From a virus (Duplodnaviria > Caudoviricetes): a stretch of 31,529 nt of DNA. Below, in pieces: positions 7,227 to 30,498 of the stretch. Position numbers and translations under genes: made by a program. The notes under the pieces are model-generated. The model saw nothing but the letters and a program-made list of their open reading frames with translations, ran no database searches and was not told the origin of the DNA. The stretch is from the IMG/VR virus record IMGVR_UViG_3300012940_000075, positions 1 through 31,529 of that record. One strand, 5' to 3'. Position 1 is the stretch's first letter; every line of letters begins with the position of its first letter.

Positions 7227-7257
7227 CTCATATCGATCTCCATTGTCTCACAGCTAT

Positions 7258-7566
7258 TTATCCAACAACTAGCATTCTATAGTGCAAATCTGTGTAGTTG
7301 TTGTCTTCATAGTGTATATCTACTTCTCTATCCCCCACTTCAAAATACATACCGTTCAAAACCTCTGCCGCAGTATCTGTTTCTGGCATCATCCATAAAA
7401 AGGAATACGGTGTTATAAGTGGGTGTTTTACATTCGTTGTTGTGCCTGGCTCTAAAGTTATCTCAACGACAATATCCAGCTTCCCATTAAATATGTCTCG
7501 TAGAACGCTAGGATTTTTTAGAAAGTTGTCTAACGTCTTACCGCCGAAATTTCTTCTTCTGGTCAT
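7258..7566 (-). CDS. Small tail-associated hypothetical protein
   Basis: Likely start ATG 7566, coupled (TAATG) to the upstream stop, with a GGAGG RBS. Confidence 0.6.
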   Translation of the reverse strand: MTRRRNFGGKTLDNFLKNPSVLRDIFNGKLDIVVEITLEPGTTTNVKHPLITPYSFLWMMPETDTAAEVLNGMYFEVGDREVDIHYEDNNYTDLHYRMLVVG

Positions 7567-9047
7567 TACTGGCGTCCTCCAATTCTCATATCGACGCCAA
7601 ATCCCCATATGTCCGTAATGGTGCTAGAATTGGTCATAGCCTTGATACGCAGCCGTTTGCCTTGCGCTCTAATCGACACTTCATTATGAACGTTAGGATA
7701 TAGCAAGCTTGTAGACTGCCAATTGCTGGTAAAGCGTGGCTTATAATCGACGCTCATTACATATTCGCCAACACCGTTAAAGCTGAGGCTGCCATTTATA
7801 ATCTTGATATTGCGGTGTTGCTCGTCATCCAAAATTGTTGATGCAACTACACATTGTCTTCCACTTCCACCAAACAAGTGAAATTGGTCATTTTTTATGT
7901 AGGGGAAAATTCGTTGAGACTCGGAGAAGTATAAAGAGTCTAAGCTAACATCGAGGTTATCTAGGTTGTTCACTACACTATCCAAATCCTCCATTGTCAT
8001 AGATTCGGAATAGGACGTTAGGAATACCTGCACCTCTTCATCTATAGTTGTCCACTTATCTAAGATGTAATTGTATGCGATGATCTTATCGTTATAGCTG
8101 CCGTTTGTGGAAAAGCTCCAAAGCACCATGTTCAGTGGCTCAAAATGGGTAGCTTTAATGGTGCGATAGCTGTTGTTGTTGAGCGTCTGCGAAAACCACT
8201 CGTCAACACGGCCCACACCAATGGATTCGCTCGAACCGTCTTGGGTGCGCTTAAAGCCTTGTGGACTGTAATAGTAGGCATAGCCGCTATTACCCAGCAC
8301 AACGCTATCTGGCGAGATGGTGCCTATCGAGCCTTCGATTACGTCGAAGTCGAAAACTAGCTCACCATATATGAGGGAGCCTTTGATAATGGCATGCTCA
8401 AAAATGAGCAGGACAGCCGCGCCGCTTGTCTGGCCAATGATCCGTGTAAGTTCACCGTAATCGCCGGGAAATGCCTGTTCACCTGCGAACTTTGCTAGAG
8501 CGTCGTCACTGCCCAATACTGGCCAGTCTGTAGGGTCATTGATGGCGCACCAGCGTATTGTTTGCCTTTCGTTTGGCCAATTGCCAACTATGATAAAGTT
8601 GTCTACCTGTGCAATGTGTGATGCGCCAAGTGGTGTTTCGTCTACTTCTGTAAACTCGCTGTCAACGCCAATAGTATACTTGAGCATCTTATTCTGGCGA
8701 TTAACCGCGCAGATGGTGTTTCCGAATTTGGCAAACTCCCAAGCCTCTATTGATCCAGAAGTGCTAAACAAGTCTACCCATGTGTCGTTAAGCCTGTCGT
8801 AGTTGTATATTCCGTCATCCGTACCTACAAAATTGTAGATAGTGCCACTAACGCGGGCTGATATACCGCTTAAAGGCTCCGCTGGAATTGGGTGATAGTT
8901 TAGTGGATTGCCAACAGGAAAAGGCTTATATATTAATCGTCCGCTAGCGTTCTTTGGGTATACATTTAAAATTTCAGCAGAGTATGATGTGTTGCTTGAA
9001 ACACTGTCTGGCGCAAATTCTGCTAGTTCCAATCCTTTAAATGCCAT
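7566..9047 (-). CDS. Tail nozzle / packaged-DNA stabilisation protein (P22 gp10 / SU10 nozzle-like)
   Basis: ~490 aa, beta-propeller-like; IRWCAINDPTDW and IIAYNYILDKWT motifs; follows the adaptor gene. Confidence 0.75.
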   Translation of the reverse strand: MAFKGLELAEFAPDSVSSNTSYSAEILNVYPKNASGRLIYKPFPVGNPLNYHPIPAEPLSGISARVSGTIYNFVGTDDGIYNYDRLNDTWVDLFSTSGSIEAWEFAKFGNTICAVNRQNKMLKYTIGVDSEFTEVDETPLGASHIAQVDNFIIVGNWPNERQTIRWCAINDPTDWPVLGSDDALAKFAGEQAFPGDYGELTRIIGQTSGAAVLLIFEHAIIKGSLIYGELVFDFDVIEGSIGTISPDSVVLGNSGYAYYYSPQGFKRTQDGSSESIGVGRVDEWFSQTLNNNSYRTIKATHFEPLNMVLWSFSTNGSYNDKIIAYNYILDKWTTIDEEVQVFLTSYSESMTMEDLDSVVNNLDNLDVSLDSLYFSESQRIFPYIKNDQFHLFGGSGRQCVVASTILDDEQHRNIKIINGSLSFNGVGEYVMSVDYKPRFTSNWQSTSLLYPNVHNEVSIRAQGKRLRIKAMTNSSTITDIWGFGVDMRIGGRQ

Positions 9048-9051
9048 ATCA

Positions 9052-9702
9052 TTATACCACCGCAATGTTAGATGCTGTGGAGCCTGCTAAATATCCACCT
9101 GCACTTTCTTTCTTCTTGTCTTCTGCTTGAAGTGCTGCAACCTTCGACTCATATAGCGTGGTATACTTCTCGAAGTTTTCAGGTTCTTCATTGAAATTGA
9201 AAATGTGTGATAGGACGCCGTAAAGCATCACATCAAAATGCTTCTGTACCAGCCAATTTGTGTTAGACGATGCAGTGAGCGGCGGTACTGAACGATAGTA
9301 GACGACATCAAACTCGCCGGCTTTTAAAAACCAAGAGACAAGTAGCTCGTTGCCTTCTTTAGTGAACTGGTTCCACTCTAATGGCTCGTATGCTACGTCA
9401 GGTACATACTCCAGGGTCTTGTTTATTAATGGATCGCCATAAAATCCTGCATTGCTGATCGTTTGCAGAGTGGCTTGTGTTGGGGCTATAGTCTTTAGCT
9501 CATTAAAATTTGCAGGTAGAGCAATGCGAGCGTCAGAAGCTGTAAGCTTTGTTCGGACTACCAAATCTGCCGTGCGTATGCGCCTGTTTAGGTCCGTCTC
9601 TACCATCATTACAAAGGTAGGAAATAGGTTAGTAAGGGTTGTGTCCCCCGGCTTCATCGCAAACTGTAAAGCGGTGCTCTGTAGCTGTAGATAAGTCGTC
9701 AT
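9052..9702 (-). CDS. Head-tail adaptor protein
   Basis: TYLQLQ...ETDLNRRIR...LPANF...NTNWLVQKHFDVMLYGVL pattern of podovirus adaptors. Confidence 0.75.
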   Translation of the reverse strand: MTTYLQLQSTALQFAMKPGDTTLTNLFPTFVMMVETDLNRRIRTADLVVRTKLTASDARIALPANFNELKTIAPTQATLQTISNAGFYGDPLINKTLEYVPDVAYEPLEWNQFTKEGNELLVSWFLKAGEFDVVYYRSVPPLTASSNTNWLVQKHFDVMLYGVLSHIFNFNEEPENFEKYTTLYESKVAALQAEDKKKESAGGYLAGSTASNIAVV

Positions 9703-9720
9703 CCTTTCCTTTTGGTAAGC

Positions 9721-10402: not shown

Positions 10403-11383
10403 TTAGCTAAAAGTTTGGTTTGGGTATGTTACGTCGAAAATACCACCGTTTCCTTTAGGAGCTAGAACTTCTAAAGTGAACTTTACGGATAGCTGTTTAC
10501 GTGTAGCTGTACCAGTTCTACCAAGGTCCATAACCTTCACGCCGCTCTTTTCAAGATAGACAATTTTATGCATATCTGAACGAATGACATGAACATCACG
10601 AGTACGGCAGTGACGTGTTGGAAGAACTTTTAGTTTATTGCCAGTTGGTGAAAGGTAGAAATCGATAAAATCGCCTTTCTCACCATTGGCATCTTTAAAC
10701 ACAGCAGCTTTACCGCTAAACCCAACCATGCTCTGAGCCTGACGTGGGTTGATGACGATTGTATCTGGCTCTTTAACTTCACTCTCCATTTCGGAAAGGA
10801 GGCTAACAAGCTGCTGCTCGGTGAACTCGCGCATATTTTCATTTGCTGCGTCAGTTCGTCCAGCAGTGGTTGACCCATTGCCGCCACCTTGGCCAGCATT
10901 GATAAATGCAGTTGTTTTTGCCCATGATGGAAGGCCACGCATCACAGTTGCCTGTGTAGTACCGTTACCAGCATTTGGGTCTTGGTTGCCTAAGGCACCC
11001 TTTTCAACCTGAGCCCGTAGCTCGACAGTTTTATTGCGGATTTCATGAGCCATACGGCCACCTTTTAGGCCATAGCCTTTGGTAGCTTCAGCAGCGTCAG
11101 TGACGACTGGTTCCTCCGTTACCTCAGAAATGTAGTTAGTTTCAAGTGAACCAGAAGTAGGCGCTGTAGCCTGTGAAGGTTGGTAGCCATACACTGATGG
11201 AGAAAAATCGTTATCAGCATATTCTTCTGTATTCCAGCTATGGACGACGTTATGTGCCATGCCAGTGCCGATAGCGTTTACGAAGGGTGTGTTACGGTTA
11301 TCAGCGTTATAGATTGCGTCAACGATATCTTCTTGTTTGTTTGTTAAAGAAGTAGCATTAACTTGGTTTGTAATAATTGCCAT
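10403..11383 (-). CDS. Major capsid protein (DUF5309 / SU10-like, HK97 fold)
   Basis: EDIVDAIY..NTPFVNAIG..HSW..TNYI..ELRAQVEKGAL pattern; 326 aa; AGGAG RBS; follows the scaffold gene. Confidence 0.85.
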   Translation of the reverse strand: MAIITNQVNATSLTNKQEDIVDAIYNADNRNTPFVNAIGTGMAHNVVHSWNTEEYADNDFSPSVYGYQPSQATAPTSGSLETNYISEVTEEPVVTDAAEATKGYGLKGGRMAHEIRNKTVELRAQVEKGALGNQDPNAGNGTTQATVMRGLPSWAKTTAFINAGQGGGNGSTTAGRTDAANENMREFTEQQLVSLLSEMESEVKEPDTIVINPRQAQSMVGFSGKAAVFKDANGEKGDFIDFYLSPTGNKLKVLPTRHCRTRDVHVIRSDMHKIVYLEKSGVKVMDLGRTGTATRKQLSVKFTLEVLAPKGNGGIFDVTYPNQTFS

Positions 11384-11436
11384 TTTTGTATACTCCTAAT
11401 AATAATGATACAAATTTCAAAAATGGCAGCGTCGAT

Positions 11437-12465
11437 CTATGAAAGTAGTTCAGCTAAATCCTTTTCTAAAGCAGAAATATCTCCTTTCTTGCTCGCGCTG
11501 CTTATGCGCTGCTTAAACTGGTTAGATTTCTTCGTTGCCTTGCTCTTTATCTGCTTAACTTTTGGCTTCTGCTCTTTTGCTTTGATGGACTTTTCAGTTC
11601 CTTTCTTTAAAGCAGCTTCCCTAAGCATCAATATCAAGCGGTGATCGCCGTTGTTGATCTCCATTATCTCTTCATCGGTTAAACCGTATTCTCTGAGATA
11701 ATCGACAATCTGTTTGGCTTCCTTTTGCATAACCTCTTGGTCATTCCATTCTGGCAGTGCTGATGAAAGTAGGTTCCGTTCACGTTCAATACGTGCTGCC
11801 GTTTCCTGTTTCTCTTGTTCTGCCTTCTGGCTTTCTAACCACTGCAAAGCATTTGCTCTGCGTTGTAAGTGGTCTATGGTCTGTTGCGCTAGCTGTGGGT
11901 TCTTGGCCCTAAGCTGGGTCACATACTGTTCCATTGTTAGACCGCTTTGTTGGATTTGAGCCATTACAGGGTCTGCAATCTGCATAACAACTGATAAGTC
12001 TTCAGCGCGTTTTGCGATTTCCTTCTCAGCATTCTTGCGGGCTTCCGCTAGTTCTTGTTGCTTGAAGGTGTAGTCCCTATGTCTCATGTATCCGTGTTGA
12101 AGCTCTTTAAACGTAACCTCCATGTCTTCATATTGGTCGCCATTTTTGGCTTTCCATTTGACAATACGCTCAGGGTCAATTTCGTCTTCGACATCGGAAT
12201 TATCTTCCTCTGCTTCGTCTTCGTCACCCTCAGCTTCGGTTTCATCCTCAGCTTCGTCAGTTTCTGCGTCGTCACTTTCCTCTTCATCTGTTTCGGCAGT
12301 CTCTAAAACTTCCTCTTCAGAATCTTGAGCGGATCGTTCGCTAACTGTTTCGTCTGCGTCGGTTTCAGATAAGGCAGCAGCGAGTGCATTTATCCTATCG
12401 TCGCTAGACATTGTTCCGTAATCCACTGTCTCTGTGGATGCTTCATTATTATTGGAGATGGCCAT
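11437..12465 (-). CDS. Capsid scaffolding protein
   Basis: Highly acidic N-terminus, EVTFKELQHGYMRHRDYTFKQQELA motif, coiled coil, LPEW..D; likely start 12465 with AGGAGG RBS. Confidence 0.85.
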   Translation of the reverse strand: MAISNNNEASTETVDYGTMSSDDRINALAAALSETDADETVSERSAQDSEEEVLETAETDEEESDDAETDEAEDETEAEGDEDEAEEDNSDVEDEIDPERIVKWKAKNGDQYEDMEVTFKELQHGYMRHRDYTFKQQELAEARKNAEKEIAKRAEDLSVVMQIADPVMAQIQQSGLTMEQYVTQLRAKNPQLAQQTIDHLQRRANALQWLESQKAEQEKQETAARIERERNLLSSALPEWNDQEVMQKEAKQIVDYLREYGLTDEEIMEINNGDHRLILMLREAALKKGTEKSIKAKEQKPKVKQIKSKATKKSNQFKQRISSASKKGDISALEKDLAELLS

Positions 12466-12523: not shown

Positions 12524-12564
12524 AAAAAAATAGTTTTGACCGTTACCGATCAAAACTATTTATA
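12524..12564 (-). promoter_or_regulatory. TATAAATA late-type promoter embedded in a terminator-like hairpin
   Basis: Minus strand TATAAATAGTTTTGATCGGTAACGGTCAAAACTATTTTTTT. Confidence 0.65.
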
Positions 12565-12594: not shown

Positions 12595-12921
12595 CTATTC
12601 TTCTTCGTGTGCTGTGTTAATGAGGAATGTTCTGAAATTTTCTAGTCCTTTAATCTTTGCTCGATAGGATGACATTTCCTCAGGATCGCATGACACCATC
12701 TCGTTCATGAGAGCTTGGCGGTAATCCCTAAACAGCACGTTGAACGCAGGACTTTTTAGAATGGTGTTCGTCTGAGATCGCAGTTGTCCTTTAGAGTGCT
12801 GTTTTAACTGCTCGCCTTCTTTGATGAGATTTGAAATTTCATCTTCGTTGATGCCATCTGGTGCATCTGTGAGGCCCATTAAATCCTCGCCTTTGTGTAG
12901 CTTTCTCTTAAACCATGCCAT
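12595..12921 (-). CDS. Hypothetical protein between portal and scaffold
   Basis: ILKSPAF helical motif; usual position in podovirus head modules. Confidence 0.7.
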   Translation of the reverse strand: MAWFKRKLHKGEDLMGLTDAPDGINEDEISNLIKEGEQLKQHSKGQLRSQTNTILKSPAFNVLFRDYRQALMNEMVSCDPEEMSSYRAKIKGLENFRTFLINTAHEEE

Positions 12922-15049
12922 TGGTATTTTCCTCTGGTTTTGTTGCTTGCATGGTATTTATCGCTATTTCATTTTGTGCTTTAGCATCTTCTCTGGCTTC
13001 TTTGTTTGCCATAGCATCTACATCAGCTTGTACCTTGAAGTCCTTCAATCCAAGCTCTTTCGCCTTTAGTTCAACCTCGGCTTGCTTGATAGCCAACTGT
13101 AGTTGTTCAAGACGTAGCTCAGCAGCCTTCACTTGAGAATCGATTTGTAGCTTTTGCTGGTCATATGCAGCATCAAGCTCTACCTCTTTGTTCTTTACCT
13201 GTGCCTGCATGCGGCTGGTTTCAGCATTGAGACGGGCTTGCTCAGTCTCATATTGAGCGATTTGGAGTGCTGGGTCTTGTTGCTGCTCACCACCACCTAG
13301 CATCTTCTGCATGAGCGCCTGTTGCAGCTCTGGTGGGTAGGTTGCTGGATCAACAAGAATTGCCTCTGAACCGTTTGGTAGCAGGCGATCAAGCTGCTTC
13401 TTAGCTAAGGTGTAGATGCTGTTTGGATTTACAAAGAGACCCATTGGGCCGCCTTGGAGCGTTATAAGCTCGCTGATAACTTCGCCGGCTTTCTCAATCT
13501 GTTGGATTTCAAACAGCCTGTCTTGGGTGCCTAAGCCGACATTGATAACGATATCGTACTGGTCATCCCAATCGGTTGGCGTGATAGCTTCCACGTTGCC
13601 CGTTGCTGTAGGAAGCTCAAAGTAATCGCCTTCAGGCATATTGACCTGCGCTACAGCGAGCGTCTTAACAGCAATATCCTTTAGGAACTCGCCAATGTTG
13701 CGGATATAGGACCTCTGCTTGACCTGGCTCTGAGCGATGACCTGTCCCAGCGCGTTGCCTGAGAGGTTCATATTCTCCGGGTCCATTTGAGCTAAGGTTG
13801 GATGGAAGCCCGTTAGCTCGGCCCGTAGTAGGTCAATCTTCTCCAGCATGGGCATCGAGTTGCCCAAAATGCTAGGCGGCGTGAGATACGCAATATCTGT
13901 CTGGGGACTTTGAGCACGGATTTTGGCACCCGGTTCATTATTCGATAGATCACGTAGATCCACGTTTGGGCTAATGACAGGGCGGCCGTTGTTGAGATTG
14001 TATATGTTGTCTAATGTCTGGCGCCATAGGTTGGTCTTTAAGAGCTGCACCATGCGCGTGTAATCGAACCAAGAGCCGCCTATGATCTTATGAGGCTCGG
14101 TCACAAGACATAGGATGCTGTAAGGCTGGATGTTCACAACCTCTCTAGCTAGGATGGTTTTGTCTTTGTCATCGAGGAACTGGAAGAAAGTTAGCTCAGG
14201 CTTGCCGTCACCATCAAAATCGTGGCGGATGTATAGCTGATAAACTGCAACCGTTCCGTCTTCTGTGGTAGGCGAGTAGGTATTTGGTTCATCCCGGATA
14301 ACCTGTTCATCGCTCTTGCAATATTTTACAGCGGCGGAAATTGTTTCTTTGTCCAAGTGAGGGAACTCGGCCTGCAATTCCCATTCTGCGTAATGTGCCT
14401 TCTCACCTACATAGCGAGCACGGTCTAAACACTCGGCGTTTGGATCAAAGATGAAGTTCTCAGGTGCTACGGTAGCTTGCGCAACATAGCTTTTTGGTTG
14501 TGTTCTGGTTACGGTGGTTGAGCCTGTGTCTTCATCGATGTTGATGGAAATGACATCATCTTGATCTTCCAACCAAGCAATGTCCTCGTCTGAAAGAGGG
14601 CCATAAGTCGTAACAACAGTTTCTTCCTCTTCTTTCCAGTATGTCTTTGCAACGCCAATTCTAAGCAAACCAGCGTCTTTTACAGCCGTTTCTAAAATCT
14701 TTTTGCCGTCATTCCGCGTCATGAAGTTGTAGTTCACGTAACGCTGCATGTGCTTCACATGCTGTTGGCTGGATACGCTAGTTGCGCGGAAGGTGAGGGG
14801 ATCACATTGTAGGAATGGCTCTATAACGATGGGTGTTAGGCCGTCTATTACTTCGGCTGTGTCCATCGAAACGTAACGACTCTTGCCTTTCTTTGAGGGC
14901 AGAATTTCAGGATCAGCGTTGTAGAAGCGTAATGCGTCCTCCCGAAAATCGGCCCATTCGTTGTATTGGTCTGTCTCGAAGTTTGCTAAGATTTCATCTA
15001 CGACTTCTCTAACTTCTTCGTCTAACCCATAAAGTCCTTTCTCATCCAT
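12908..15049 (-). CDS. Portal protein (P22/SU10-like, long C-terminal barrel)
   Basis: 713 aa; GKSRYVSMD, KDAGLLRIGVAKTYW, PENFIFDP, INVGLGT motifs; Gln-rich C-terminal coiled coil. Confidence 0.9.
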   Translation of the reverse strand: MDEKGLYGLDEEVREVVDEILANFETDQYNEWADFREDALRFYNADPEILPSKKGKSRYVSMDTAEVIDGLTPIVIEPFLQCDPLTFRATSVSSQQHVKHMQRYVNYNFMTRNDGKKILETAVKDAGLLRIGVAKTYWKEEEETVVTTYGPLSDEDIAWLEDQDDVISINIDEDTGSTTVTRTQPKSYVAQATVAPENFIFDPNAECLDRARYVGEKAHYAEWELQAEFPHLDKETISAAVKYCKSDEQVIRDEPNTYSPTTEDGTVAVYQLYIRHDFDGDGKPELTFFQFLDDKDKTILAREVVNIQPYSILCLVTEPHKIIGGSWFDYTRMVQLLKTNLWRQTLDNIYNLNNGRPVISPNVDLRDLSNNEPGAKIRAQSPQTDIAYLTPPSILGNSMPMLEKIDLLRAELTGFHPTLAQMDPENMNLSGNALGQVIAQSQVKQRSYIRNIGEFLKDIAVKTLAVAQVNMPEGDYFELPTATGNVEAITPTDWDDQYDIVINVGLGTQDRLFEIQQIEKAGEVISELITLQGGPMGLFVNPNSIYTLAKKQLDRLLPNGSEAILVDPATYPPELQQALMQKMLGGGEQQQDPALQIAQYETEQARLNAETSRMQAQVKNKEVELDAAYDQQKLQIDSQVKAAELRLEQLQLAIKQAEVELKAKELGLKDFKVQADVDAMANKEAREDAKAQNEIAINTMQATKPEENTNGMV

Positions 15050-15286
15050 TTACCTTGATAACACCTTTGAAAATAGTTTTTTGGTCTTTGTATATAGCGA
15101 GCTAAAGAAGCCGCCTTGTGGTGGCATGCGCTGTAGCATGACCTCAGCAGGTGTTAGCTGCTTCTCAACTGGTGCGGTTTCCTCTATATGCGCTGTGTCG
15201 AGAACCTCATTAACTGCAATAGGTTCTTCTATGACGCGCGGTGCGCTTCTCTTCTTATTTATGAAAACTTTAACTTCTATACCCAT
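15050..15286 (-). CDS. Hypothetical protein
   Basis: Fills the terL-portal gap exactly, same strand. Confidence 0.55.
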   Translation of the reverse strand: MGIEVKVFINKKRSAPRVIEEPIAVNEVLDTAHIEETAPVEKQLTPAEVMLQRMPPQGGFFSSLYTKTKKLFSKVLSR

Positions 15287-15289
15287 CTC

Positions 15290-16795
15290 TTATAGTACCC
15301 ATGCTACGTCCTCTTCCTCTTCCCATGGCATTCGCTTTTGCTCCTTCTTCCAGTCGGCGCGGAAAGCTAGAGCAACGGCGTCGGAAAGATCAGGACTCCG
15401 TTTAATCTTCTTCTTAATTTTATCTTTAGGGATCATTAGTATGCGGCCACGCATATTGAGCGTTACCTCATGTGCAGACAGTTCCTGTCGCAACATCTCA
15501 AGTGTTGGCAAGTCTATGCTAGAGTTTAAGGCAATTTCATATCGCTTGAACATATTGGCCAAATTCCAATACATCTGAGCGCGTAGGTTTTCAAAACGCT
15601 CAGTATCTACTTCTGATGCATTGTTAAAAACGACTTTGTGAACTGGCAGGTTGTTGTATCGCAACCAATCGTATATTGGTCCGCCGTTTCCTGTGCCATC
15701 TACAAATATCTTGAAAGGTTCTTCGTTTACCTGACGAGCGTGGGAATACTCGTTCATCATGAGGATTTGCAAATCCTCTGCATTGGCATTGGGGATAATC
15801 TTTATCTGTTCAATAACCGGGCCATACCGCTTTACGAGCACGGTTTTATCAGCACCTGTAGTTGCTACGTCTAAGCCCCAAAATCGCTGATCGATGGAGC
15901 TAGGAACAACATCACGATTGCCTACAGCCGTTTGGAACTGCTCAAAAGTAACAAGAACGCTTTCGTCGTCCTTTGGAAATTCGCCCAACACACGAGCCTC
16001 AAACATTGAAGCTGTTTCTGTGCGGCGCTTTGTTTCAATCCATTGCGGAGAAACGCGCTCGTTAGGGTCGTTGGGGTTAAGGGCCGTGTAAGCGCCTGTC
16101 CTTGGGTCTTGTGGCCCATGAAGCTGGTAGTCCAAGCTGCTTACCGTCATCGTGTAGTACACGTCTGACAGCTCTTCAAAAGCTTGGAAGAATGGCCCAT
16201 CCGCATGCAGCGGGTTCCCAACCATGATGAGCTGGGTATTGGGATCCGCTAGAATGGATTCGACAGCATCAAAGCATACCTGTGGAATGCCTGACGCCTC
16301 GTCGATGATGATGCTAGTGCGCTTGCCTCGTACACCTTGCAAGGCTGCTGGGTTGTCCTTAGATGCAGTGCGAAGAACAGCAAACACATGGTCAGGAAAG
16401 AACTTGTGCTTGATAATGCCGCTCTGCGCTTCCAGTAGGACACTGAGCACCTTGTTTTCGGATATGAGCTTGCGGATTTCAGCAAACAGGCCAGCTTGCA
16501 AGTTGTCGAAGGAAGCGCCTGTTATGATGATCTTTAGGTCTGTGCTGAAAACCAGAAGGTAGATGACGAGCCAAGCAATAACAGTACTCTTGCCAACGCT
16601 ATGGCCGGATTTCACTGCTACCCTCGGGCGGTCTTTTGCTTCCTGTAAAAACTCTTCCTGCCACCTATTAGGTGTCTGTTTGAGGATATCGCGGACAAAC
16701 TCTAAAATGTCGCCTTCGTAATCCTTTAAATATGCAAAAAGAGCTTTAATTCGATCTGGTGTTGCTCCGTGGTCAACTTTTTTCCTTGGTGCCAT
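15290..16795 (-). CDS. terL: Terminase large subunit
   Basis: Walker A SGHSVGKST, Walker B IIIDEA, VGNP coupling motif, nuclease motifs WGLDVA, VDGTGNG and SPDLSDA. Confidence 0.95.
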   Translation of the reverse strand: MAPRKKVDHGATPDRIKALFAYLKDYEGDILEFVRDILKQTPNRWQEEFLQEAKDRPRVAVKSGHSVGKSTVIAWLVIYLLVFSTDLKIIITGASFDNLQAGLFAEIRKLISENKVLSVLLEAQSGIIKHKFFPDHVFAVLRTASKDNPAALQGVRGKRTSIIIDEASGIPQVCFDAVESILADPNTQLIMVGNPLHADGPFFQAFEELSDVYYTMTVSSLDYQLHGPQDPRTGAYTALNPNDPNERVSPQWIETKRRTETASMFEARVLGEFPKDDESVLVTFEQFQTAVGNRDVVPSSIDQRFWGLDVATTGADKTVLVKRYGPVIEQIKIIPNANAEDLQILMMNEYSHARQVNEEPFKIFVDGTGNGGPIYDWLRYNNLPVHKVVFNNASEVDTERFENLRAQMYWNLANMFKRYEIALNSSIDLPTLEMLRQELSAHEVTLNMRGRILMIPKDKIKKKIKRSPDLSDAVALAFRADWKKEQKRMPWEEEEDVAWVL

Positions 16796-17000
16796 CGCGT
16801 CCTTGTCTCAACAAGTCGCGCACCCATTCGTCATCACTTAATACATCCGCTACATCCTTGCGGGAGATGTTGTTGACGATGTTGAAAGCTTTTAAAGCTA
16901 TCTTAGGATCATGATGTTGGCATAGCATCTCCAATATGCTGATGTTCTGCATCAGTATCCGTTCAAACGCGGTCTTGTCGAATTTGTCGTTGTTATCCAT
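16773..17000 (-). CDS. Putative terminase small subunit (apparently leaderless)
   Basis: 75-aa ORF overlapping the terL start; ATG lies 5 nt after an ATAAATA box; no SD. Confidence 0.55.
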   Translation of the reverse strand: MDNNDKFDKTAFERILMQNISILEMLCQHHDPKIALKAFNIVNNISRKDVADVLSDDEWVRDLLRQGRDGTKEKS

Positions 17001-17008
17001 ACAACTAT

Positions 17009-20871: not shown

Positions 20872-20929
20872 GGTGAAAACCTCCTTGTTAGTGTGTTCAT
20901 ATGTATTTATCTTTTTTGCTGTTTTCTCT

Positions 20930-21013
20930 AATGAAATACGGGCGAAGATTGCTCTATCGCCCGTATCTCTGAACACACTGCACAAGGCAGTATTTCGATT
21001 TAGTTACGTTCTC
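20930..21013 (-). ncRNA. Candidate antisense small RNA / alternative leader
   Basis: ATAAATA at 21019-21025; contains CCTTGTGCAGTGTGTTCA, complementary to downstream leaders; ends in hairpin ATACGGGCGA/TCGCCCGTAT. Confidence 0.5.
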
Positions 21014-21024
21014 GTATCTATTTA

Positions 21025-21570
21025 TTACACACCAATAAACGTAACGTTTGGAACTGTGCCTGGGATTCGATACGAAATTCTCATCTGTATGACATCAACT
21101 TGTGCGGGCCATCCAGGTGTAGATGACACGTATGAGACTTTTAATTGGGTTCCAAAAAACAGGCCATTGACGTCTTCTGGTGTTAGACCTGCATTACCGC
21201 CAATGGCATAGTTCGCAAACATATACGTGGGCTGCCATAGGTCTGGTTTTGCCAAATTGTCACTTTCAACTACCACCGATGTTGTGCCTGTATATACTTC
21301 TGAACCAATATAAAGAGAGTAATCTTGTATAGCATCTGGACCGCCAATTCTCTTAACTCTTGCTTCAATGTTGTCTATGACGGCGTTCGTTGGGATATCG
21401 AAACCAAAACCGTATACAGATAATCCGATAGAATGTTGGCCAGTTGGCAACTGTACTTGAGAAGCGCCTTCACTGTCTTCTACCAAAGCCCATCCAGGAT
21501 TGTTCCAACCGAAGAATTCTGTTCCAGTATTTTTTGCTTCTGTGCCATTGGTCCATGCGGTCGTTACCAT
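21025..21570 (-). CDS. Beta-sandwich fibre-associated protein
   Basis: FGFDIPTNAVIDNIEARV...VDVIQMRISY jelly-roll-like pattern; follows the fibre gene. Confidence 0.6.
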   Translation of the reverse strand: MVTTAWTNGTEAKNTGTEFFGWNNPGWALVEDSEGASQVQLPTGQHSIGLSVYGFGFDIPTNAVIDNIEARVKRIGGPDAIQDYSLYIGSEVYTGTTSVVVESDNLAKPDLWQPTYMFANYAIGGNAGLTPEDVNGLFFGTQLKVSYVSSTPGWPAQVDVIQMRISYRIPGTVPNVTFIGV

Positions 21571-21573
21571 CTC

Positions 21574-23259
21574 TTACGACCTCGCACAGGTGAGTTTGAT
21601 GCTAACGCCTTCTGCGCTGCTATTAGATGATAGGACTATAGAAACAGCGTCGCCCGCACTAACGGAATTAGCTGCTGTCGCAGTTTCAGTATCTTGGCTA
21701 CTAGATAATGACAATCCTGTTAGGCCAGTTACGGGTGTTCCATCAATCTCAACAGACGCACTAACAGTTCCTGATGATGTTACAAAATATGCAGATTCGA
21801 TGGTGTAAGCGAATGATGCATATTGATCGATTGCGTAGGTGCCGTTTTCGCCCAAGGGCAACGTAAACTGGATACCAAATGAGTTTAAGCTATCGACATA
21901 TGCCTTTGTGGCTGCATCTTGGGCATTGGTTGGATCACCTACGTTTTGTATCCTATTTGTGTTGGTATATATGTCTGCTCCCGGTGTTCCAAGAGTTACG
22001 AATGGTGCTGACATGCTTATTCCTGCTGTACTTACAAAACCGAGGGTGCCGCCGCCAACATCTTGGAACTGGATACCGCCAGAGCTTTGGTTCGCAAATA
22101 TAATACCACCAGTTCCGGCTGTATTTTGTCCTTGCACTATAGCAATGTAATCGTCACCTTCGGCAGTAATTGCAAATCCGTTTAGATCAAGATCACCGCC
22201 TAACTGTGGGCTAGTGTCATCAACTAAATCTGTCGCAATAGTGTCAGGCACCCATTGGCTACCGTCCCATACAAGTGCTTGGCCACTTGTCGGTGACGAC
22301 GAGCTTGTATCTACGTCGCTCAAATCGTCGATGGATGATGGAATGCTAGGCGTATTTGATAGGTCGCCATAATCGCCTGATGTAGCTACCGTTGCCAATG
22401 ACGGAGCACCTGTTAAATCGCCATATGCGCCACTAAACACATTAGCATCTACATATGCCTTTGTGGCTGCATCTTGGGCATTGGTTGGATCGACTAAATT
22501 GACAACTTTGTAGCTGCTCTGAGCATCAAGGTTGCCGCCTAACTGTGGTGAGGTATCTTCAACAACTGCTGAGATGCCACCTGATGCAACATCATCAGGC
22601 ACCCATTGGCTACCATCCCATATGAGCGCTTGGCCAGTCGTAGGAGCTACAGTGCTCGTATCTACGTCGCTCAAATCGTCGATGGATGATGGAATGCTAG
22701 GCGTATTTGATAGGTCGCCATAATCGCCAGTTGTTGCGACTGTTGCTAGCGAAGGTGTCCCGCTCAAGTCCGAGTAAGCACCTGTCGTTGCAACCGTAGC
22801 CAAGCTTGGCGTGCCTGAAAGGTCACTATATGCGCCAGAACGAGCAACAGTTGCTAAGGTGTCTGGCACCCAATTCGAACCATCCCAAGCTAGAACGTCA
22901 TCAACGCTTGCTGGATTCGAAACAGTGTCTACGTCATCTAGGCTGTCTATTGAGATATCGACAACGATAGACCCCAGCTCGGCCGGAACCCATTGGGATC
23001 CATCCCAAGCAAGAACGTCATCCGTTTGAGGCGGTATAGAGCTAGTGTCTACGTCTGACAGGTCATCGATGGAAACTACCTGCGATCCACCACCACCAAC
23101 CTGAGATTTTATATCTGCCCAAGAAATTTTGAGCTTGGAGTTGGGGTAGGAGTTTGTTCGCTCTACAACGAACAGGTCTGTATCTTGTAAGCTGTCAGCC
23201 TCAACTAGAGGCTCAAACAAGCTCTTATAGATATAGTTCCCATAGATGATGCTGGACAT
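21574..23259 (-). CDS. Second fibre protein (head or tail fibre)
   Basis: Four IDDLSDVD..P..(GQ/DD)xLxWDGSQWVP-type repeats, LATVATTGAYSDLSGTP repeats, DTSPQLGGNLD motifs, two DPTNAQDAATKAYVD. Confidence 0.85.
   Translation of the reverse strand: MSSIIYGNYIYKSLFEPLVEADSLQDTDLFVVERTNSYPNSKLKISWADIKSQVGGGGSQVVSIDDLSDVDTSSIPPQTDDVLAWDGSQWVPAELGSIVVDISIDSLDDVDTVSNPASVDDVLAWDGSNWVPDTLATVARSGAYSDLSGTPSLATVATTGAYSDLSGTPSLATVATTGDYGDLSNTPSIPSSIDDLSDVDTSTVAPTTGQALIWDGSQWVPDDVASGGISAVVEDTSPQLGGNLDAQSSYKVVNLVDPTNAQDAATKAYVDANVFSGAYGDLTGAPSLATVATSGDYGDLSNTPSIPSSIDDLSDVDTSSSSPTSGQALVWDGSQWVPDTIATDLVDDTSPQLGGDLDLNGFAITAEGDDYIAIVQGQNTAGTGGIIFANQSSGGIQFQDVGGGTLGFVSTAGISMSAPFVTLGTPGADIYTNTNRIQNVGDPTNAQDAATKAYVDSLNSFGIQFTLPLGENGTYAIDQYASFAYTIESAYFVTSSGTVSASVEIDGTPVTGLTGLSLSSSQDTETATAANSVSAGDAVSIVLSSNSSAEGVSIKLTCARS
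21896..22491. repeat. 41-bp exact direct repeat (21896-21936 and 22451-22491)
   Basis: ACATATGCCTTTGTGGCTGCATCTTGGGCATTGGTTGGATC occurs twice. Confidence 0.9.
22307..22728. repeat. 71-bp exact direct repeat (22307-22377 and 22658-22728) within longer imperfect repeats
   Basis: Identical sequence 351 bp apart, in frame. Confidence 0.9.
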
Positions 23260-23276
23260 TACTGCTTAGCCTCCGC

Positions 23277-23555
23277 TTAAGCTGAAACGTCGTCAGCAAC
23301 CCAAGCTGAACCGTTCCAAGTGAGAACCTGCCCAATTTCTGGTTCTACTGTTAGGTCCACGTCTGATAGGTCATCAATGGAAGCTGGTACGTTTAAGTTT
23401 GCCTTTAGCTGAGCACCTGTGATGCCATAGGTTTCTGTTCCGTGATCTGTATCTCTCTGAACGAGAATGTAATCTGTGTCTTCAATGCTGGTTACATCTT
23501 CTGATGTAAGGTCTTTAAGTTTGACCAAATTGGTCCAAAATGATGGATATGCCAT
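23277..23555 (-). CDS. Short fibre-related protein (92 aa)
   Basis: AAAGGAG RBS; one IDDLSDVD...GQVLTWNGSAWV repeat; N-terminus resembles that of the 561-aa fibre. Confidence 0.75.
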   Translation of the reverse strand: MAYPSFWTNLVKLKDLTSEDVTSIEDTDYILVQRDTDHGTETYGITGAQLKANLNVPASIDDLSDVDLTVEPEIGQVLTWNGSAWVADDVSA

Positions 23556-23612
23556 AGTTGTTTGCGACTCCTTTATAGAGTGCGGGAGACCCATTCTCCC
23601 GCCGCATACAAC

Positions 23613-23620
23613 TATTTATA
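23613..23620 (-). promoter_or_regulatory. TATAAATA late-type promoter of the fibre cassette
   Basis: TGCGCCTTTTATAAATAGTT, similar to TGCGCCTTATAAATAGTT at 12554-12571. Confidence 0.7.
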
Positions 23621-23630: not shown

Positions 23631-24794
23631 CTATTTTTTTGTTAGAGCATCCTTTGCGTCCGTCATATCTGCCTCGTTCAAATGTTTGTCTTTAACCTTC
23701 ACTTTCCCAAGAACGTAAGCAAAAAAGTCTGCATACTCCTCAATCCCATCGTCATAGGACTTATTCCAAAACGCGCGGGCTTCTTTTGGATCAAACTTCC
23801 CATACGTGTTGAAAACGACAAAACGACGATCATTTTCAGCAAACGTCAACGGATCATGACGGTCAGTGAACATCCATACGCTGGTCCAATTGCGCAAGTT
23901 CTCTGTTACAGTCGAACGTGGCATTCTAACCTTATAGTATGGGTTGCCAATTACACTCTTAAGCTTATCTAGCAACATCTGTTTGTTTTTCACATATCCT
24001 TTCTGTGTTGGGCCTACGGCGTTCACTTGATAGGCGCTGATATCATCAAAATACATCATCAAGGAATTGGACGTTCCTATGGCCGTCTCCTTCATCAATG
24101 TTTGTGGTGTTTCTGAACTGATATTCGACTCGCCTATGATATGGCGCATTATGTTTATCAATGAACCTTTGCCTGATCCTTCTGGCCCGATCATCAAAAA
24201 GCCTAACCGATGATGGTGCTTTGCTAGTTCATGCCGCTGCACAATCTTTGCAAGAGTGTAGATAAACTGGCGAACTGCTGGATATTGTTCCCAATGTCTT
24301 GGCTGCCTAACCCGCACACCTGTCCAATAGAATATTGCATCCTTCAACCAAGCGTTCATGCGTCTGGCCTTTTCAGCACCCATTGGAGGCTTGCGAGTTG
24401 GGTAGGTGAACGGTTTGTAGGTGTTCATAACCAACCCATTGTCATTGAAAAGAGCTTTCGCATACGGGTTATAGCCTGACCGCCCAATGTATGAGATTGG
24501 TGTCTGCCGAATGAGCCGCGCCGCTTGCTTGGTATTCTTTACCGTTTTCAGTTCTTTATGATGTGCCTCAAAAAACAGATGCACAACAACATCAAAGTTC
24601 TGATGTGTGCTTTTCTCACCGTCGAAATATAGGTAGTTGCTTTTCTGATATTTGTAGATATGGCGTTTGACAATCTCCATGTCCAATTTTATTGGGTCGT
24701 CTGCTTCTTCCTTAGCTTGCTGGTCTTCATAGATATTGTCCCATTCTGCCATTAGCTGCTCTAGCTGCTTTCTAGCTTTGCGTGGTCTGCCCAT
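23631..24794 (-). CDS. SF3 helicase / NTPase (DUF5906-like) without an evident primase domain
   Basis: Walker A GPEGSGKGS, Walker B MMYFDD, motif C-like WMFTD, NDRRFVV arginine finger. Confidence 0.85.
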   Translation of the reverse strand: MGRPRKARKQLEQLMAEWDNIYEDQQAKEEADDPIKLDMEIVKRHIYKYQKSNYLYFDGEKSTHQNFDVVVHLFFEAHHKELKTVKNTKQAARLIRQTPISYIGRSGYNPYAKALFNDNGLVMNTYKPFTYPTRKPPMGAEKARRMNAWLKDAIFYWTGVRVRQPRHWEQYPAVRQFIYTLAKIVQRHELAKHHHRLGFLMIGPEGSGKGSLINIMRHIIGESNISSETPQTLMKETAIGTSNSLMMYFDDISAYQVNAVGPTQKGYVKNKQMLLDKLKSVIGNPYYKVRMPRSTVTENLRNWTSVWMFTDRHDPLTFAENDRRFVVFNTYGKFDPKEARAFWNKSYDDGIEEYADFFAYVLGKVKVKDKHLNEADMTDAKDALTKK

Positions 24795-24836
24795 AGTGTG
24801 TTCTCCCTTTTTTTGTATTTATTTTATCCTTTTCTG

Positions 24837-26160: not shown

Positions 26161-26331
26161 CTACTCGTCACTGACCGTTGTTATATTATCCATTGGATAA
26201 TAGCATTCGGAACATATTACACGGCCATCGCTATATAGTCTGAAATCTATACTGCCACACTCGCACTGAAAGACGAATGGACCTTCTTCAACTTTCTTAT
26301 TGCGTTTTTTAAAATCTACTACTTCTCCCAT
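26161..26331 (-). CDS. 56-aa zinc-ribbon protein (MGEVVDFKK...CECG...CSEC), absent from the ORF track
   Basis: Translated by hand; GGAGG RBS. Confidence 0.7.
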   Translation of the reverse strand: MGEVVDFKKRNKKVEEGPFVFQCECGSIDFRLYSDGRVICSECYYPMDNITTVSDE

Positions 26332-26480
26332 CCATTATTTCCTCCAAACCACTTCTTGTTTAATTCTCTAAGAGATGCAGGCTTTGTTTCATCGTAAGTT
26401 CTCAAAGCCCACTTCACTTCGTGGAAATATTTTTTCCTGTCCACCAAAAACAATATTTCATACAGAACATCGCCGTTCAT
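26319..26480 (-). CDS. 53-aa hypothetical protein (MNGDVLYEILF...), absent from the ORF track
   Basis: Translated by hand; fills the operon gap. Confidence 0.55.
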   Translation of the reverse strand: MNGDVLYEILFLVDRKKYFHEVKWALRTYDETKPASLRELNKKWFGGNNGWEK

Positions 26481-26502
26481 CCATCATTTCCCCACTAAAA
26501 CC

Positions 26503-26823
26503 CTACACATAGGATTCAAACTCTCTATCAAATTTGATTTTAAAGGCTAAGAAGTCTTCTTCTAATATAAATGTGAAACATACAAACGGGCAGCAATCGC
26601 CATCAATATATGGGTCTTCATGATATTCGCGTCTGTCGAACCATAACCGCCACCAACCATTATTGGCTTGATGTCCTTCATGGTTAAACCAAATGTTATT
26701 GGCATCCTTATAATCGAACATCCAAAACCCTTTGCAGTTATCATCTAACCATGCAGCGTGTTCGGCGAATTCTGGCCCCATAACATCACTTCTGTATTTC
26801 TTATGTGCTTCGTTCATCATCAT
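26503..26823 (-). CDS. Hypothetical phage protein
   Basis: WLDDNCKGFW...FILEEDFLAFKIKF; coupled to the upstream gene. Confidence 0.75.
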   Translation of the reverse strand: MMMNEAHKKYRSDVMGPEFAEHAAWLDDNCKGFWMFDYKDANNIWFNHEGHQANNGWWRLWFDRREYHEDPYIDGDCCPFVCFTFILEEDFLAFKIKFDREFESYV

Positions 26824-27059
26824 TTCCCCCTTGCTGGTGCCTTCTTTGTAGGTCTCTTGGAGGATGCAGCTTTCAATGCCTCTATCTCATTGCGCAATGC
26901 CTCAAGCTCTTTGATGGCTGCTTGAAGCTCAATGGCTAGCATTCTGACGGATGGTATATGGAAGTTGCTATATACCTTCGGTGATGACCAATTGCGCAGG
27001 TCTTTCATATCTGCATTGGCTAAGTCTTCTAGTGTTTCAAATGTTTTTTCTTCTTTCAT
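26820..27059 (-). CDS. Hypothetical coiled-coil protein
   Basis: AGGAGGT RBS. Confidence 0.7.
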   Translation of the reverse strand: MKEEKTFETLEDLANADMKDLRNWSSPKVYSNFHIPSVRMLAIELQAAIKELEALRNEIEALKAASSKRPTKKAPARGK

Positions 27060-27092
27060 CCATTGTTACCTCCTAAGCTCATCAAGAAGGTT

Positions 27093-27527
27093 TTAAACCT
27101 CCTTCTTAACTTCTTCCTTCAATTGTTTCATTTCAGATTCTCTTCTTTTTTCATAGGCGAGATATTGTCTGAACTCTTTAATGTCGCATTCTCTATTGAA
27201 AACAATCTTATGATATGGCGTAACTTGCATGCCATACTGCTTTGGTCTGCCCAACCAATACGGGTAGTTTTTATCCACAAGTCTAAAGTGGATGCCGCTG
27301 TCATAGCACCAATGAGCCAAATCGCTCTTTTTAAACTCCTTCCTGTCTTCACTTTGTTTCTGTTTATACTCTGGCGTGTATGATACACTTATTTCATAAT
27401 ATTTTTGCAATACGTCATTGTATCTCTTAGCCCTATCTTCTTCAAACTTCTTAACCAATTCTTCTGTTGGGCATGGATCATTATCTTCATCCATATATTT
27501 CTTCCAAAAGTTCCAAATTGCCATCAC
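27093..27527 (-). CDS. Hypothetical phage protein
   Basis: AGGAGGT RBS; WC...F..E.D...F pattern similar to the 26503 gene. Confidence 0.7.
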   Translation of the reverse strand: MMAIWNFWKKYMDEDNDPCPTEELVKKFEEDRAKRYNDVLQKYYEISVSYTPEYKQKQSEDRKEFKKSDLAHWCYDSGIHFRLVDKNYPYWLGRPKQYGMQVTPYHKIVFNRECDIKEFRQYLAYEKRRESEMKQLKEEVKKEV

Positions 27528-27841
27528 TCGTTACCTCCTTCATTTACGGTAACATCCAAGCAATAGTATTGGGCATCGACATATTCCACATTGATATCTA
27601 ACCGGCTCACTAGATCGGGCGAGCAGGCTTCTTCAATCCATTGTGAAAAGCGAACTAGTACTTCTGGCATAACATTAGGATTGATGCCTACCACCATTAT
27701 GACGTTGCCATCCAACAAATGTGCTGTTGCACTGTTATTGATGATAGAGACGAAGTTCTGTTGCAGGCTATTTACAACAATGTCTGCTTCTGATGGGTAT
27801 TCTACTTTTTGATATGTCGTGGTGTGGGCGTCTTCTGACAT
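27524..27841 (-). CDS. Hypothetical phage protein
   Basis: Likely start MSEDA with AAGGAGG RBS after an ATAAATA box. Confidence 0.7.
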   Translation of the reverse strand: MSEDAHTTTYQKVEYPSEADIVVNSLQQNFVSIINNSATAHLLDGNVIMVVGINPNVMPEVLVRFSQWIEEACSPDLVSRLDINVEYVDAQYYCLDVTVNEGGNE

Positions 27842-27906
27842 CTGCCTTCCTCCTTGTAGTGTGTTCATTCGTATTTATTATTGGAGGCAGATATTCTTTC
27901 GATATG

Positions 27907-28011
27907 AAAAAAATGGCGGTTGGAAATGAGCAACCAACCGCCAAGTCGTGTTTAAGGAAATAACAATGTATATTAGGCGCATCAGATACTGGTGTCTGGA
28001 TGATGCAGCCC
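27907..28011 (-). ncRNA. Candidate small RNA (~105 nt)
   Basis: TATAAATA at 28017-28024; 5' hairpin GGGCTGCATCA/TGATGCGCCT; terminator TGGCGGTTGG/CCAACCGCCA + T7. Confidence 0.6.
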
Positions 28012-28023
28012 AATCTTATTTAT

Positions 28024-28134
28024 AAAAAAAGGTAGGATGCCGGAACTCTGACATCCTACCTTGAAGGTATTCTATATTTTTTTTACCAATGGCTACATTG
28101 GACATGATCCATCTGCATAATATATCTAGATCAT
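28024..28134 (-). ncRNA. Candidate small RNA (~110 nt)
   Basis: CTAAATA at 28140-28146; hairpins ATGATCTA/TGGATCAT and CCAATG/CATTGG; terminator AAGGTAGGATG/CATCCTACCTT + T-run. Confidence 0.55.
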
Positions 28135-28155
28135 ATTCCTATTTAGTCCATCAGT

Positions 28156-28512: not shown

Positions 28513-28587
28513 AGTAGCTCCTTTGGTCATGATCGTAGGAGCCTATTGCCGTCGTTCTGTCTGTCGATCTGTCGTTATGGGGGTATT

Positions 28588-28980
28588 ATGAAGCTACGTC
28601 AGAAGGTCGTTATATGGTTGATCGATGAAGGGAAGATGCTGGACAAAGCCGCTATCTGGCTAACCAACAATACTAAAGCCGTCTTTGAGATAGTTGCAGC
28701 ATGTGGTGCCATTGCCGTTATCCATCTCGCCTATGAAGTTACCGAACCTAAAAACATAGTGTTCGAATGGCTAGCCTTCATCCTCTATATGCTTCTAATA
28801 CTGCAAATCCTATATCAATGGCTTTCCAACTACATCATACCATTGTTTAAAACTAGGAATGTTGCCTATAAGGTATTTGGCGCTGCAATGTTCGTTCTAT
28901 CGATAACCATAGTTCCATGGGGTCTTGCATACCTGATAAGCAGCCTAGTTTTGGCCTTCATCAATGTTCAGCAGCTATAG
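28588..28980 (+). CDS. Multi-pass membrane protein (130 aa)
   Basis: Three to four hydrophobic helices; GGGGGT RBS before ATG 28588. Confidence 0.7.
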   Translation: MKLRQKVVIWLIDEGKMLDKAAIWLTNNTKAVFEIVAACGAIAVIHLAYEVTEPKNIVFEWLAFILYMLLILQILYQWLSNYIIPLFKTRNVAYKVFGAAMFVLSITIVPWGLAYLISSLVLAFINVQQL

Positions 28981-29552
28981 ATTCTGTTACCGACGCTCGG
29001 CAACTTCAAAGAAATTAACTATATTGGTTTACCCTTAGATTCTGTTACCAACTATCGGGCTCATCATATGGTATCAGACTTCCGTATTATAAACATAACA
29101 TGGTCGTTCTTATCGTCGATTGGAAAAAGACAGAAATATGAACTTTTTTCATATAAAGACAGATAAACCCGCACATACCTAACTGCATGGCGGCTCGTAT
29201 AGTCTAACACTAGTCTTTCCTATCGTTTTTTGTATTGGCCAAGATGAAGGTTATGCCAATGCGCACTTTTTGGGCTGCGTCTCCCTGCTACTACACGGAA
29301 CATTTAAGGTAAGCTCCAACCTTACAGTAGATTCTTGTTCTAACATTATGGCGATCCCGTAGGGCCTGTTTAGCGAGTGTCTACTATTCTTATTTATACA
29401 TTCGGCTCAGAAACCCGCGCAATCGTGCTATATTTGGGTTCACTATCGGGCTGGTCTAAGGTGGTCGCTCCCCTACATTATAATGATACTTTCTTCCTTT
29501 TCTATGTCGATACTTTTCTGACAGAATAGCGCAGATATATATGGTTTCTGTC

Positions 29553-29647
29553 AAAAAAAAGAATACCGCCAACATTGCATTGACGGTACTCCTGTAAACA
29601 GCCATGTAAAGAATGCTTTTAGGCAGGTGTGATATTAATTGGCTGTC
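29553..29647 (-). ncRNA. Candidate small RNA (~95 nt)
   Basis: CTAAATA at 29653-29659; 5' stem ACAGCCA/TGGCTGT; terminator GAGTACCGTCAA/TTGGCGGTATTC + T8. Confidence 0.55.
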
Positions 29648-30498
29648 AATCGTATTTAGCAAGAAACTTTAGATCGACATATATTTTCGTTGGTGTCTGC
29701 GGAATTTTGTATGTTTATCGGGCAGGTCACATTCCCCTAGACCCCTACATTCTAACTATACAGAAACTATGTCAATATGTCGATACCATTACACACAAAA
29801 TATACTATATATTTTGGTATTTTTTATGCCTAAACCATTGATATCATTGATGCGTAGGTTTGGCTAGAATGCTGCTATATCTTGTTGTTCTGGTTTTTCC
29901 ATATTGTGGCATTCTTACAACAGAATGAAGAATCCTTTTTACCAGAATGTCAAAGGTTTCTGCGATATTTTTTAGGTTGGACGGGCATTTTCTTGTTGAC
30001 ATGGCCTGAGCTTGCAGGTCTTTCCATCATATGATGTTAATGGTGTCATAATGTCATCAAGATAGCATCATTATCATCATAGCATCATCATTGATATCAT
30101 TATGCTTCCATCAACCTATCTCCACCCGTTATCACAATGCTCAACTTTCATTGTGTCCTTAGGGTTTTCATCATATCGCCAATATATCGTTCATTGGCCA
30201 TATATCATTCTTTCTTGTTGTTTCTTGCGATATCGGTTTGAACGATAGTTTATATATCAGTCTCTTTCTTCTATTCGATAGTTTCTTCTATATCTGCTTT
30301 CGTTCATATAGATATCTTATTCGTTCTATATTGTTTCTGTACATTATCGTTTTTATATCGTTCTTATCGTATGTCTTGTTATAGATATATAGAATATTGT
30401 TCTTTGCTGTATTGTTTGGCGAATAAATATTTCGTAGCTCGTTATCGAGTTTCTGTGTTTCTTTGTTTTTCAGTTCTTATTGGAGGGTTTTGTGGCGG

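Follow-up and report, generated by a model that had tools for sequence, protein, structure and literature searches.

Late promoters of the T4 family, which depend on gp55, gp33 and gp45, read TATAAATA in T4, [C/A]TAAATA in phiM12, a T4-like phage of Sinorhizobium, and NATAAATA in cyanomyoviruses such as S-PM2 (PMC2984593). The T4 box has a T at -13 and no -35 element; late transcription is described as normally dependent on a clamp that has been loaded onto replicating DNA, and gp55 alone as supporting basal transcription on supercoiled DNA (PMC2988020). The gp33 protein is reported missing from some alphaproteobacterial T4-like phages (PMC4621102). Among integrated viruses, the mavirus provirophage of Cafeteria is described as self-encapsidating, equipped with promoters that resemble the CroV late motif, and silent until infection (10.1101/068312). 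Here we analyse a viral DNA stretch of 31,529 nucleotides (nt), positions 1 to 31,529 of IMG/VR record IMGVR_UViG_3300012940_000075, referred to as the window. It contains a whole prophage of about 31 kb (114-31416) that encodes a short-tailed virion (podovirus) and carries TAAATA boxes. These share with the T4-family late promoters the core, the 5-nt spacing, the lack of a -35 element, the placement before virion genes and the occurrence within hairpins. Unlike the T4 family, the element is a small temperate podovirus without a recognised gp55, gp33 or gp45, and its boxes also precede a helicase gene and predicted short RNAs. In our reading, to which we give a probability of roughly 0.6, the boxes are gp55 promoters, the sigma factor is brought by an infecting T4-like phage, and the element is a helper-activated satellite virus.

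An earlier note on this DNA had listed 18 such sites, and every coordinate was verified. The list was right but incomplete. The window holds 24 copies of TAAATA (18 on the minus strand, six on the plus strand), and the six unlisted ones are 15256 and 27769 on the minus strand, within open reading frames (ORFs), and 7488, 9088, 9777 and 16727, which are plus-strand antisense copies inside genes. The TAAATA core is present at all sites and the full TATAAATA at only four. As the note had proposed for a fixed transcription start, a purine lies at +6 in 16 of the 18 listed sites and a pyrimidine-purine step (Y|R) follows exactly 5 nt after the box in 14 of them (background 0.24, p 2e-6; 1-8 of 18 at other offsets). 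Counted on the 18 minus-strand sites, the step is found at +6 in 13 and at +7 in two. The T at -13 in the T4 box puts +1 at the same base as this step. A -35 element was likewise lacking: none of the 18 minus-strand sites had TTG 16-18 nt upstream, and matches to TTGACA were at best at random level.

The signal of the boxes lies in their placement, not in their number. The bulk count is ordinary (24 observed against 22.4 expected on both strands), with 18 sites on the minus strand against 8-12 expected (p 0.001-0.08). When hexamers were ranked in the 50-nt windows upstream of the 44 called genes, AGGAGG came first and TAAATA second. The box occurs in 9 of these 44 windows, whereas 1000 dinucleotide shuffles gave 1.7 on average and never more than 6, and 10 of the 24 sites face a gene, compared with 27 of 230 for nine control hexamers of the same composition. 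Boxes 28017, 27872, 17459 and 12557 lie directly after or within terminator-like hairpins, which agrees with the terminator adjacency noticed earlier. The description of the motif as element-wide holds for most of the lytic programme and is slightly too wide, since most plus-strand genes and the tRNA gene are free of boxes. The helicase gene does have its box (24816), and that box has no Y|R step. Taken together, a box 5 nt before the predicted start and no -35 element support a T4-late-type reading at the sequence level, the sigma70 promoter of the integrase gene representing a distinct class. The individual boxes and predicted RNAs that stand out are as follows.

7255..7260, minus strand: box 29 nt upstream of the ejection-protein gene, with Y|R at +6
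12528..12562, minus strand: TATAAATA box 12557, overlapping the 5' arm of a terminator-like hairpin, before the scaffold and capsid genes
17006, minus strand: box in the arrangement TAAATA-N5-ATG
18030, minus strand: box in a hairpin loop, also TAAATA-N5-ATG
18813..18907: convergent pair of boxes (18813, plus strand; 18902, minus strand) in a structured non-coding stretch
27908..28145, minus strand: two tandem box-RNA-terminator units (boxes 28140 and 28017), with predicted structured RNAs of 115 and 104 nt
29200..29658, minus strand: boxes 29653 and 29391 with predicted structured RNAs, the first of 98 nt and terminator-bounded
30424, plus strand: box lacking Y|R, before a helix-turn-helix (HTH) gene

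Transcripts predicted to start at boxes 28140, 28017, 29653 and 29391 would each begin with the opening base of a stem, and a terminator closes three of these four predicted RNAs after 98-115 nt. None of the predicted structured RNAs matched Rfam. It is possible that these box-driven RNAs of about 100 nt act against a helper or against the host.

The note had suggested a look at conservation in related prophages, and the same box pattern was found in a second element. Six draws of genomes (401, 119, 301, 401, 91 and 181) were searched for capsids of the SU10 type, which occurred in 20, 21, 4, 8, 2 and 1 genomes per draw, respectively (overlapping). The second element (G050:C8:81005-113050) is a 32-kb prophage with 56% GC in a chromosome of about 70% GC, with a 17-bp attachment (att) repeat located at the 3' end of a tRNA-Glu gene. 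It has the layout of the window's element, with an integrase at one end on the opposite strand, a virion module and an SF3 helicase, plus RuvC and a holin; none of its 33 ORFs matched a polymerase, primase, sigma factor, repressor or endolysin. TAAATA occurs 19 times against 4.5 expected, 17 of them on the virion strand, and is always preceded by A or C. The Y|R step lies at +6 in 13 of the 17 sites and at +7 in none, and TTG was found 16-18 nt upstream in 0 of 17. Ten of the 19 copies face genes, compared with 4 of 65 for control hexamers, and 18 single-base variants of the box gave no comparable signal. In the 4.6-Mb G050 genome, five of the nine occurrences of TAAATA-N5-ATG fall inside the element, which is 0.7% of the genome (p 2e-9). 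Several of the G050 boxes, such as 102023 and 111339, lie in hairpins that would mask the start codon on read-through transcripts, and recall the T4 genes e, soc, 49 and I-TevI, whose boxes are described within hairpins (PMC3014915). The two elements share five structural proteins only, at 23-28% identity, and in a quick capsid tree their capsids form long branches that do not group. Weak matches to defence-type cargo were seen near the G050 element (L141:811-1704 and L142:11342-11857), namely a TIR effector (E 4e-7) just outside att and an ApeA-like protein (E 6e-4).

The proteome of the window's element, 53 ORFs, was examined by profile search. The virion module is of the LUZ24/SU10 type, with SU10_MCP, SU10_portal, SU10_adaptor, scaffold and ejection proteins all present; the element thus encodes its own capsid and packaging genes, and tail, fibres and ejection proteins as well. 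No gp55, other sigma factor, polymerase, primase or endolysin was recognised among the 53 ORFs, and profile, tblastn and six-frame searches recognised no gp55, gp33, gp45 or gp43 in the element. About 20 ORFs have no family (ORFans). The gene content is given below.

254..281, plus strand: canonical sigma70 promoter of the integrase gene, TTGCTA-17-TATAAT, the sole match of that scan in either element
317..1438, plus strand: tyrosine integrase (PF00589, E 2e-21; phrog_1)
1569..3551, minus strand: membrane/coiled-coil ORF, fibre-associated ORF and tail fibre (phrog_1863; tail-fibre PHROGs)
3568..9702, minus strand: likely ejection proteins, a tail/stabilisation protein (phrog_3287) and the adaptor (PF24175)
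5841-7226, minus strand: likely ejection protein (phrog_4287)
10403..12465, minus strand: major capsid protein (PF17236) and scaffold
12908..16795, minus strand: portal (PF23899) and large terminase, with boxes 12955 and 15256
16773..18035, minus strand: small ORFs including two membrane proteins, with boxes 17006, 17459 and 18030
17009-17431, minus strand: protein with an HExxH motif, before the terminase
19768..21024, minus strand: two ORFans of 167 and 177 aa behind boxes 20904 and 21019
21025..23618, minus strand: second fibre-like block behind box 23613, with repeats like fibre/baseplate proteins, mostly of large myoviruses
23631..24821, minus strand: SF3/D5-type helicase with no recognised primase domain; box 24816 lies 22 nt upstream of the ATG
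26161..27877, minus strand: block of small ORFans behind box 27872
30424..30897, plus strand: HTH protein, candidate excisionase or regulator, with box 30424

The nearest relative of the capsid among 1.8 billion representatives searched is P0002, at 51-52% identity, the rest being at about a third. No close relatives with DNA context were found in viral contigs, metagenome contigs gave the window's own contig only, and the relative search yielded no homolog of the helicase. The HExxH protein is the sole candidate for an unrecognised lytic peptidase. The second fibre-like block (21025-23594) stands apart from the main tail genes, and its repeats resemble fibre or baseplate proteins of phiRSL1, T4-like cyanophages and PA5oct; it could serve to bind a second receptor or a helper particle. 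A PADLOC scan gave weak matches only. Two non-coding stretches are candidates for a packaging site and an origin: 18050-19020, with convergent boxes and long hairpins, and 29900-30450, which is rich in GAACGA/GATAT repeats. A search of the non-coding region gave no meaningful match to phage DNA.

The alternative that survives best, which we consider unlikely, is that of an autonomous phage whose own gp55-like factor, diverged beyond recognition, sits among the ORFans. Phages often encode late sigma factors themselves, and some 20 small ORFs without family leave room for one. Late-sigma families are nevertheless unmatched in both elements: tblastn with gp55 on the window gave a best E of 1.4, and a search of the six frames of the window and the whole G050 genome found no gp55, the phiM12 positive control reaching E 9e-57. 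The two gp55-sized ORFans (167 and 177 aa) are themselves behind boxes; sigma similarity was sought in them and none was found, Atlas and PDB searches gave no family name, and the AlphaFold model of the one that was folded (pLDDT 49) was too poor for a fold search. In addition, no non-structural protein is common to the two elements at E 0.05 or better, and polymerase, primase and endolysin are likewise unrecognised.

An improbable alternative is that the boxes are -10 elements of host sigma70 or another host sigma factor. Alphaproteobacterial promoters often lack the T at -7, the promoter of the host tRNA-Glu gene in G050 (TTGACG-17-TACATA) is one base off TAAATA, and the G179 genome has TAAATA-N5-ATG threefold over control. 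The absence of TTG at 16-18 nt (0/18 and 0/17), the invariance of the box in G050 and a step at +6 rather than +7 all speak against it, as does the finding that 0.7% of the length of the G050 genome contains five of its nine TAAATA-N5-ATG. Moreover, the gene-facing pattern was absent from all 49 comparator phages and prophages, which comprised six named phages and 43 genome stretches (ten of only 2-4 kb, four of which were extended), some further short loci not entering the count. Stretches from G813, G1149, G1072 and G646 and two other regions of G050 were negative. The gp55-helper reading is favoured by the autonomous relatives phiM5 and ppBeUSDA76-2, which have annotated lysins and no gene-facing boxes, phiM5 also encoding polymerase and primase. 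In G813, an SU10-type virion cluster (L294/L295, G813:C1:1088475-1104864) is flanked by housekeeping genes, with neither integrase nor replication genes seen in its vicinity, and is possibly a domesticated particle cluster.

Two leads were set aside. Prophages of G179 first looked like further examples, and were rejected for their repressor-type layout and scattered sites. A cassette scan returned 119 loci, with a phiM12 homolog in 56 of the 80 long ones; it had no background control, the three small-phage loci that were inspected proved to be chance antisense matches, and the scan is not used as support.

The third alternative, which we regard as remote, accepts the boxes as gp55 promoters and places the element in the genome of a giant T4-like phage rather than in a chromosome. 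It bears on how the element is integrated, for which three tRNA features are relevant.

62..123, minus strand: 3' half of the host tRNA-Leu(TAA) gene, including the att core at 114-123
31407..31447, minus strand: 5' half of the same gene, including the att core at 31407-31416
30901..30986, minus strand: whole tRNA-Leu(TAA) gene carried by the element, which would replace the split host gene

The integration site is thus a tRNA-Leu(TAA) gene split within the anticodon loop, with the 10-bp att core GATTTTAAGT at both ends (114-123 and 31407-31416). A 41-nt contig represents the empty site, fusing 94-123 with the sequence at 31417-31427; in the one sequencing run that contains the element, possibly its source, the depth was 17 for the empty site, 48 for the element and 58-59 for the flanks. 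No circle joint was found among the contigs listed for that run, contigs being prone to drop rare forms. With an integrase, an att repeat and an empty site, the window holds an integrated temperate element. Integration into a giant phage had been our first idea. A contig of 260,556 bp carries the same proteins and one of 733,317 bp the nearest relative; both lengths would suit jumbo phages, and large phages carry tRNA genes. The idea was weakened when the tRNA 5' half was found to match 37 bacterial loci and no viral contig; the label was Alphaproteobacteria or Pseudomonadota for 36 of these loci. These matches make an alphaproteobacterial host and chromosomal integration likely. A pattern search with the tRNA 3' half gave no match. 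The flanks are GC-rich (56-64% in the short flanks against 45% in the element), and the G050 element is plainly chromosomal.

Several further observations concern this tRNA site. The repair of the split gene takes the form of a whole, different tRNA gene and not of a duplicated 3' half, and among the matches listed the closest to the element-borne gene is from Rhizobium phage Pasto, at 85%. The window uses TTA for 17.5% of its leucine codons (120/687); the corresponding figures are 4.5% for the G050 element and 3.5% for phiM12. This usage fits the carried tRNA-Leu(TAA). Two unrelated islands in other genomes (L027 and L034, near position 1500) cut the same tRNA at the same point, the L034 island having a different integrase. 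In the right flank beyond window position 31529, a further tRNA-Leu-like stretch lies about 2.4 kb off.

Chance in AT-rich intergenic DNA, for which one could cite the total equal to expectation (24 vs 22.4) and the rank of TAAATA as just tenth among intergenic minus-strand hexamers, is largely refuted by the shuffle test, the fixed Y|R step, the coincidence with stem starts and the recurrence in an element of 56% GC.

Several points weigh against gp55 supplied by a helper as the explanation of the boxes. phiM12 encodes gp55, gp33 and gp45 and has [C/A]TAAATA before g23, g22, g19, g18, g25, g48, g4 and g3; its Y|R step, though, is at +6 in only 6 of 18 hand-picked sites and TAAATA-N5-ATG is absent, so that the match to phiM12 is in the core only. 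The variant AAAATA also gave five gene-facing sites with Y|R in the window. An ordinary prophage of G179, one of the 49 comparators, has an excess of TAAATA-N4-YR (22 vs 5.2); these sites occur on both strands, chiefly within genes, and show no bias at -1. The host genome of this prophage contains 30 TAAATA-N5-ATG against 10 of a control pattern, so that the host-sigma reading retains a low probability. The flanks available in the window are just 61 and 82 nt long. The support is drawn from sequence; the roughly 20 ORFans of the window could hide a diverged specificity factor or a lysin, and the HTH gene could be a repressor. Finally, a clamp on replicating DNA is normally needed, and an integrated template may lack it.

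Under the gp55-helper reading, transcription by host sigma70 would be limited to the integrase gene and a small number of maintenance genes, the lytic genes being off for want of a sigma factor rather than through a repressor. Infection by a T4-like phage would supply gp55, probably with gp33 and gp45, which would switch on the helicase, small proteins, short RNAs and virion genes. The element might then excise, load its SF3 helicase and borrow polymerase and primase; its DNA would be packaged in its own podovirus particles, to be released when the helper lyses the cell. That it interferes with the helper is a guess. We infer every step beyond the sequence anatomy. More tentatively, and at a little short of even odds in our estimate, the two elements might represent a bacterial 'provirophage' class: complete tailed phages of possibly more than one origin, silent without a repressor switch, which rely on the gp55 of virulent T4-like phages both to sense infection and to drive transcription, make particles of their own, and hold the helper in check through small proteins and RNAs expressed from the boxes.

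If this is true, a seemingly self-sufficient prophage would be a parasite of T4-like phages whose dependence can be read from its promoters alone, and a simple screen could reveal hidden satellite viruses that homology searches miss. It would also extend the virophage strategy to bacteria, would add a defence that is induced by phages of a major group and directed at them, and would permit a direct test of whether gp55 acts in trans on DNA unreplicated by the helper.

The closest virions are those of the LUZ24/SU10-type podoviruses of Alphaproteobacteria (phiM5, ppBeUSDA76-2 and HTVC106P), which have the same capsid, portal, scaffold, adaptor and ejection module, capsid identities of 27-30% and, in phiM5 and ppBeUSDA76-2, an integrase. 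They differ in having their own lysins and replication or recombination genes, and no gene-facing TAAATA boxes. Both the window's and the G050 element lack a recognisable primase or polymerase, as do satellite viruses of the MulchRoom and MiniFlayer kind. The satellites P4, PICI, cf-PICI, PLE and HE-PICI are similar in their tRNA-type integration and helper-triggered cycle (PMC11389934, PMC10690885), and PLE is described as exploiting a virulent phage. P4, PICI, cf-PICI and PLE are, however, described as borrowing capsids or tails and as having their own replicase (PMC11389934, PMC13359090), whereas this element of about 31 kb encodes a whole virion; it has an adaptor, a tail protein, fibres and ejection proteins but no recognised primase, which places it outside these groups.

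The nearest bacterial system appears to be that of the Streptomyces satellites MulchRoom and MiniFlayer, which are alike in their own capsid and packaging genes, lack of primase, low GC and large virulent helper, MulchRoom having a tyrosine integrase as found here (PMC10690885). Their helpers are siphoviruses and MulchRoom appears to borrow tails, and the word 'promoter' does not occur in the main text of that report (PMC10690885). In contrast, a complete set of podovirus tail and ejection proteins and an SF3 helicase are encoded here, and what the element would depend on is the sigma factor of the helper. Streptomyces phages were not among the organisms listed in the capsid tblastn, and MulchRoom and MiniFlayer were not directly compared. 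No gp55-dependent satellite or prophage was found in a search of the open-access literature. In its logic, the element would be nearest to the mavirus provirophage, an analogy only, given a eukaryotic host and an unrelated virus lineage; silence, activation and protection are reported for mavirus (10.1101/068312), and are proposed here by analogy. Considered as a satellite virus, the element stands a fair chance of representing a provirophage in bacterial form.

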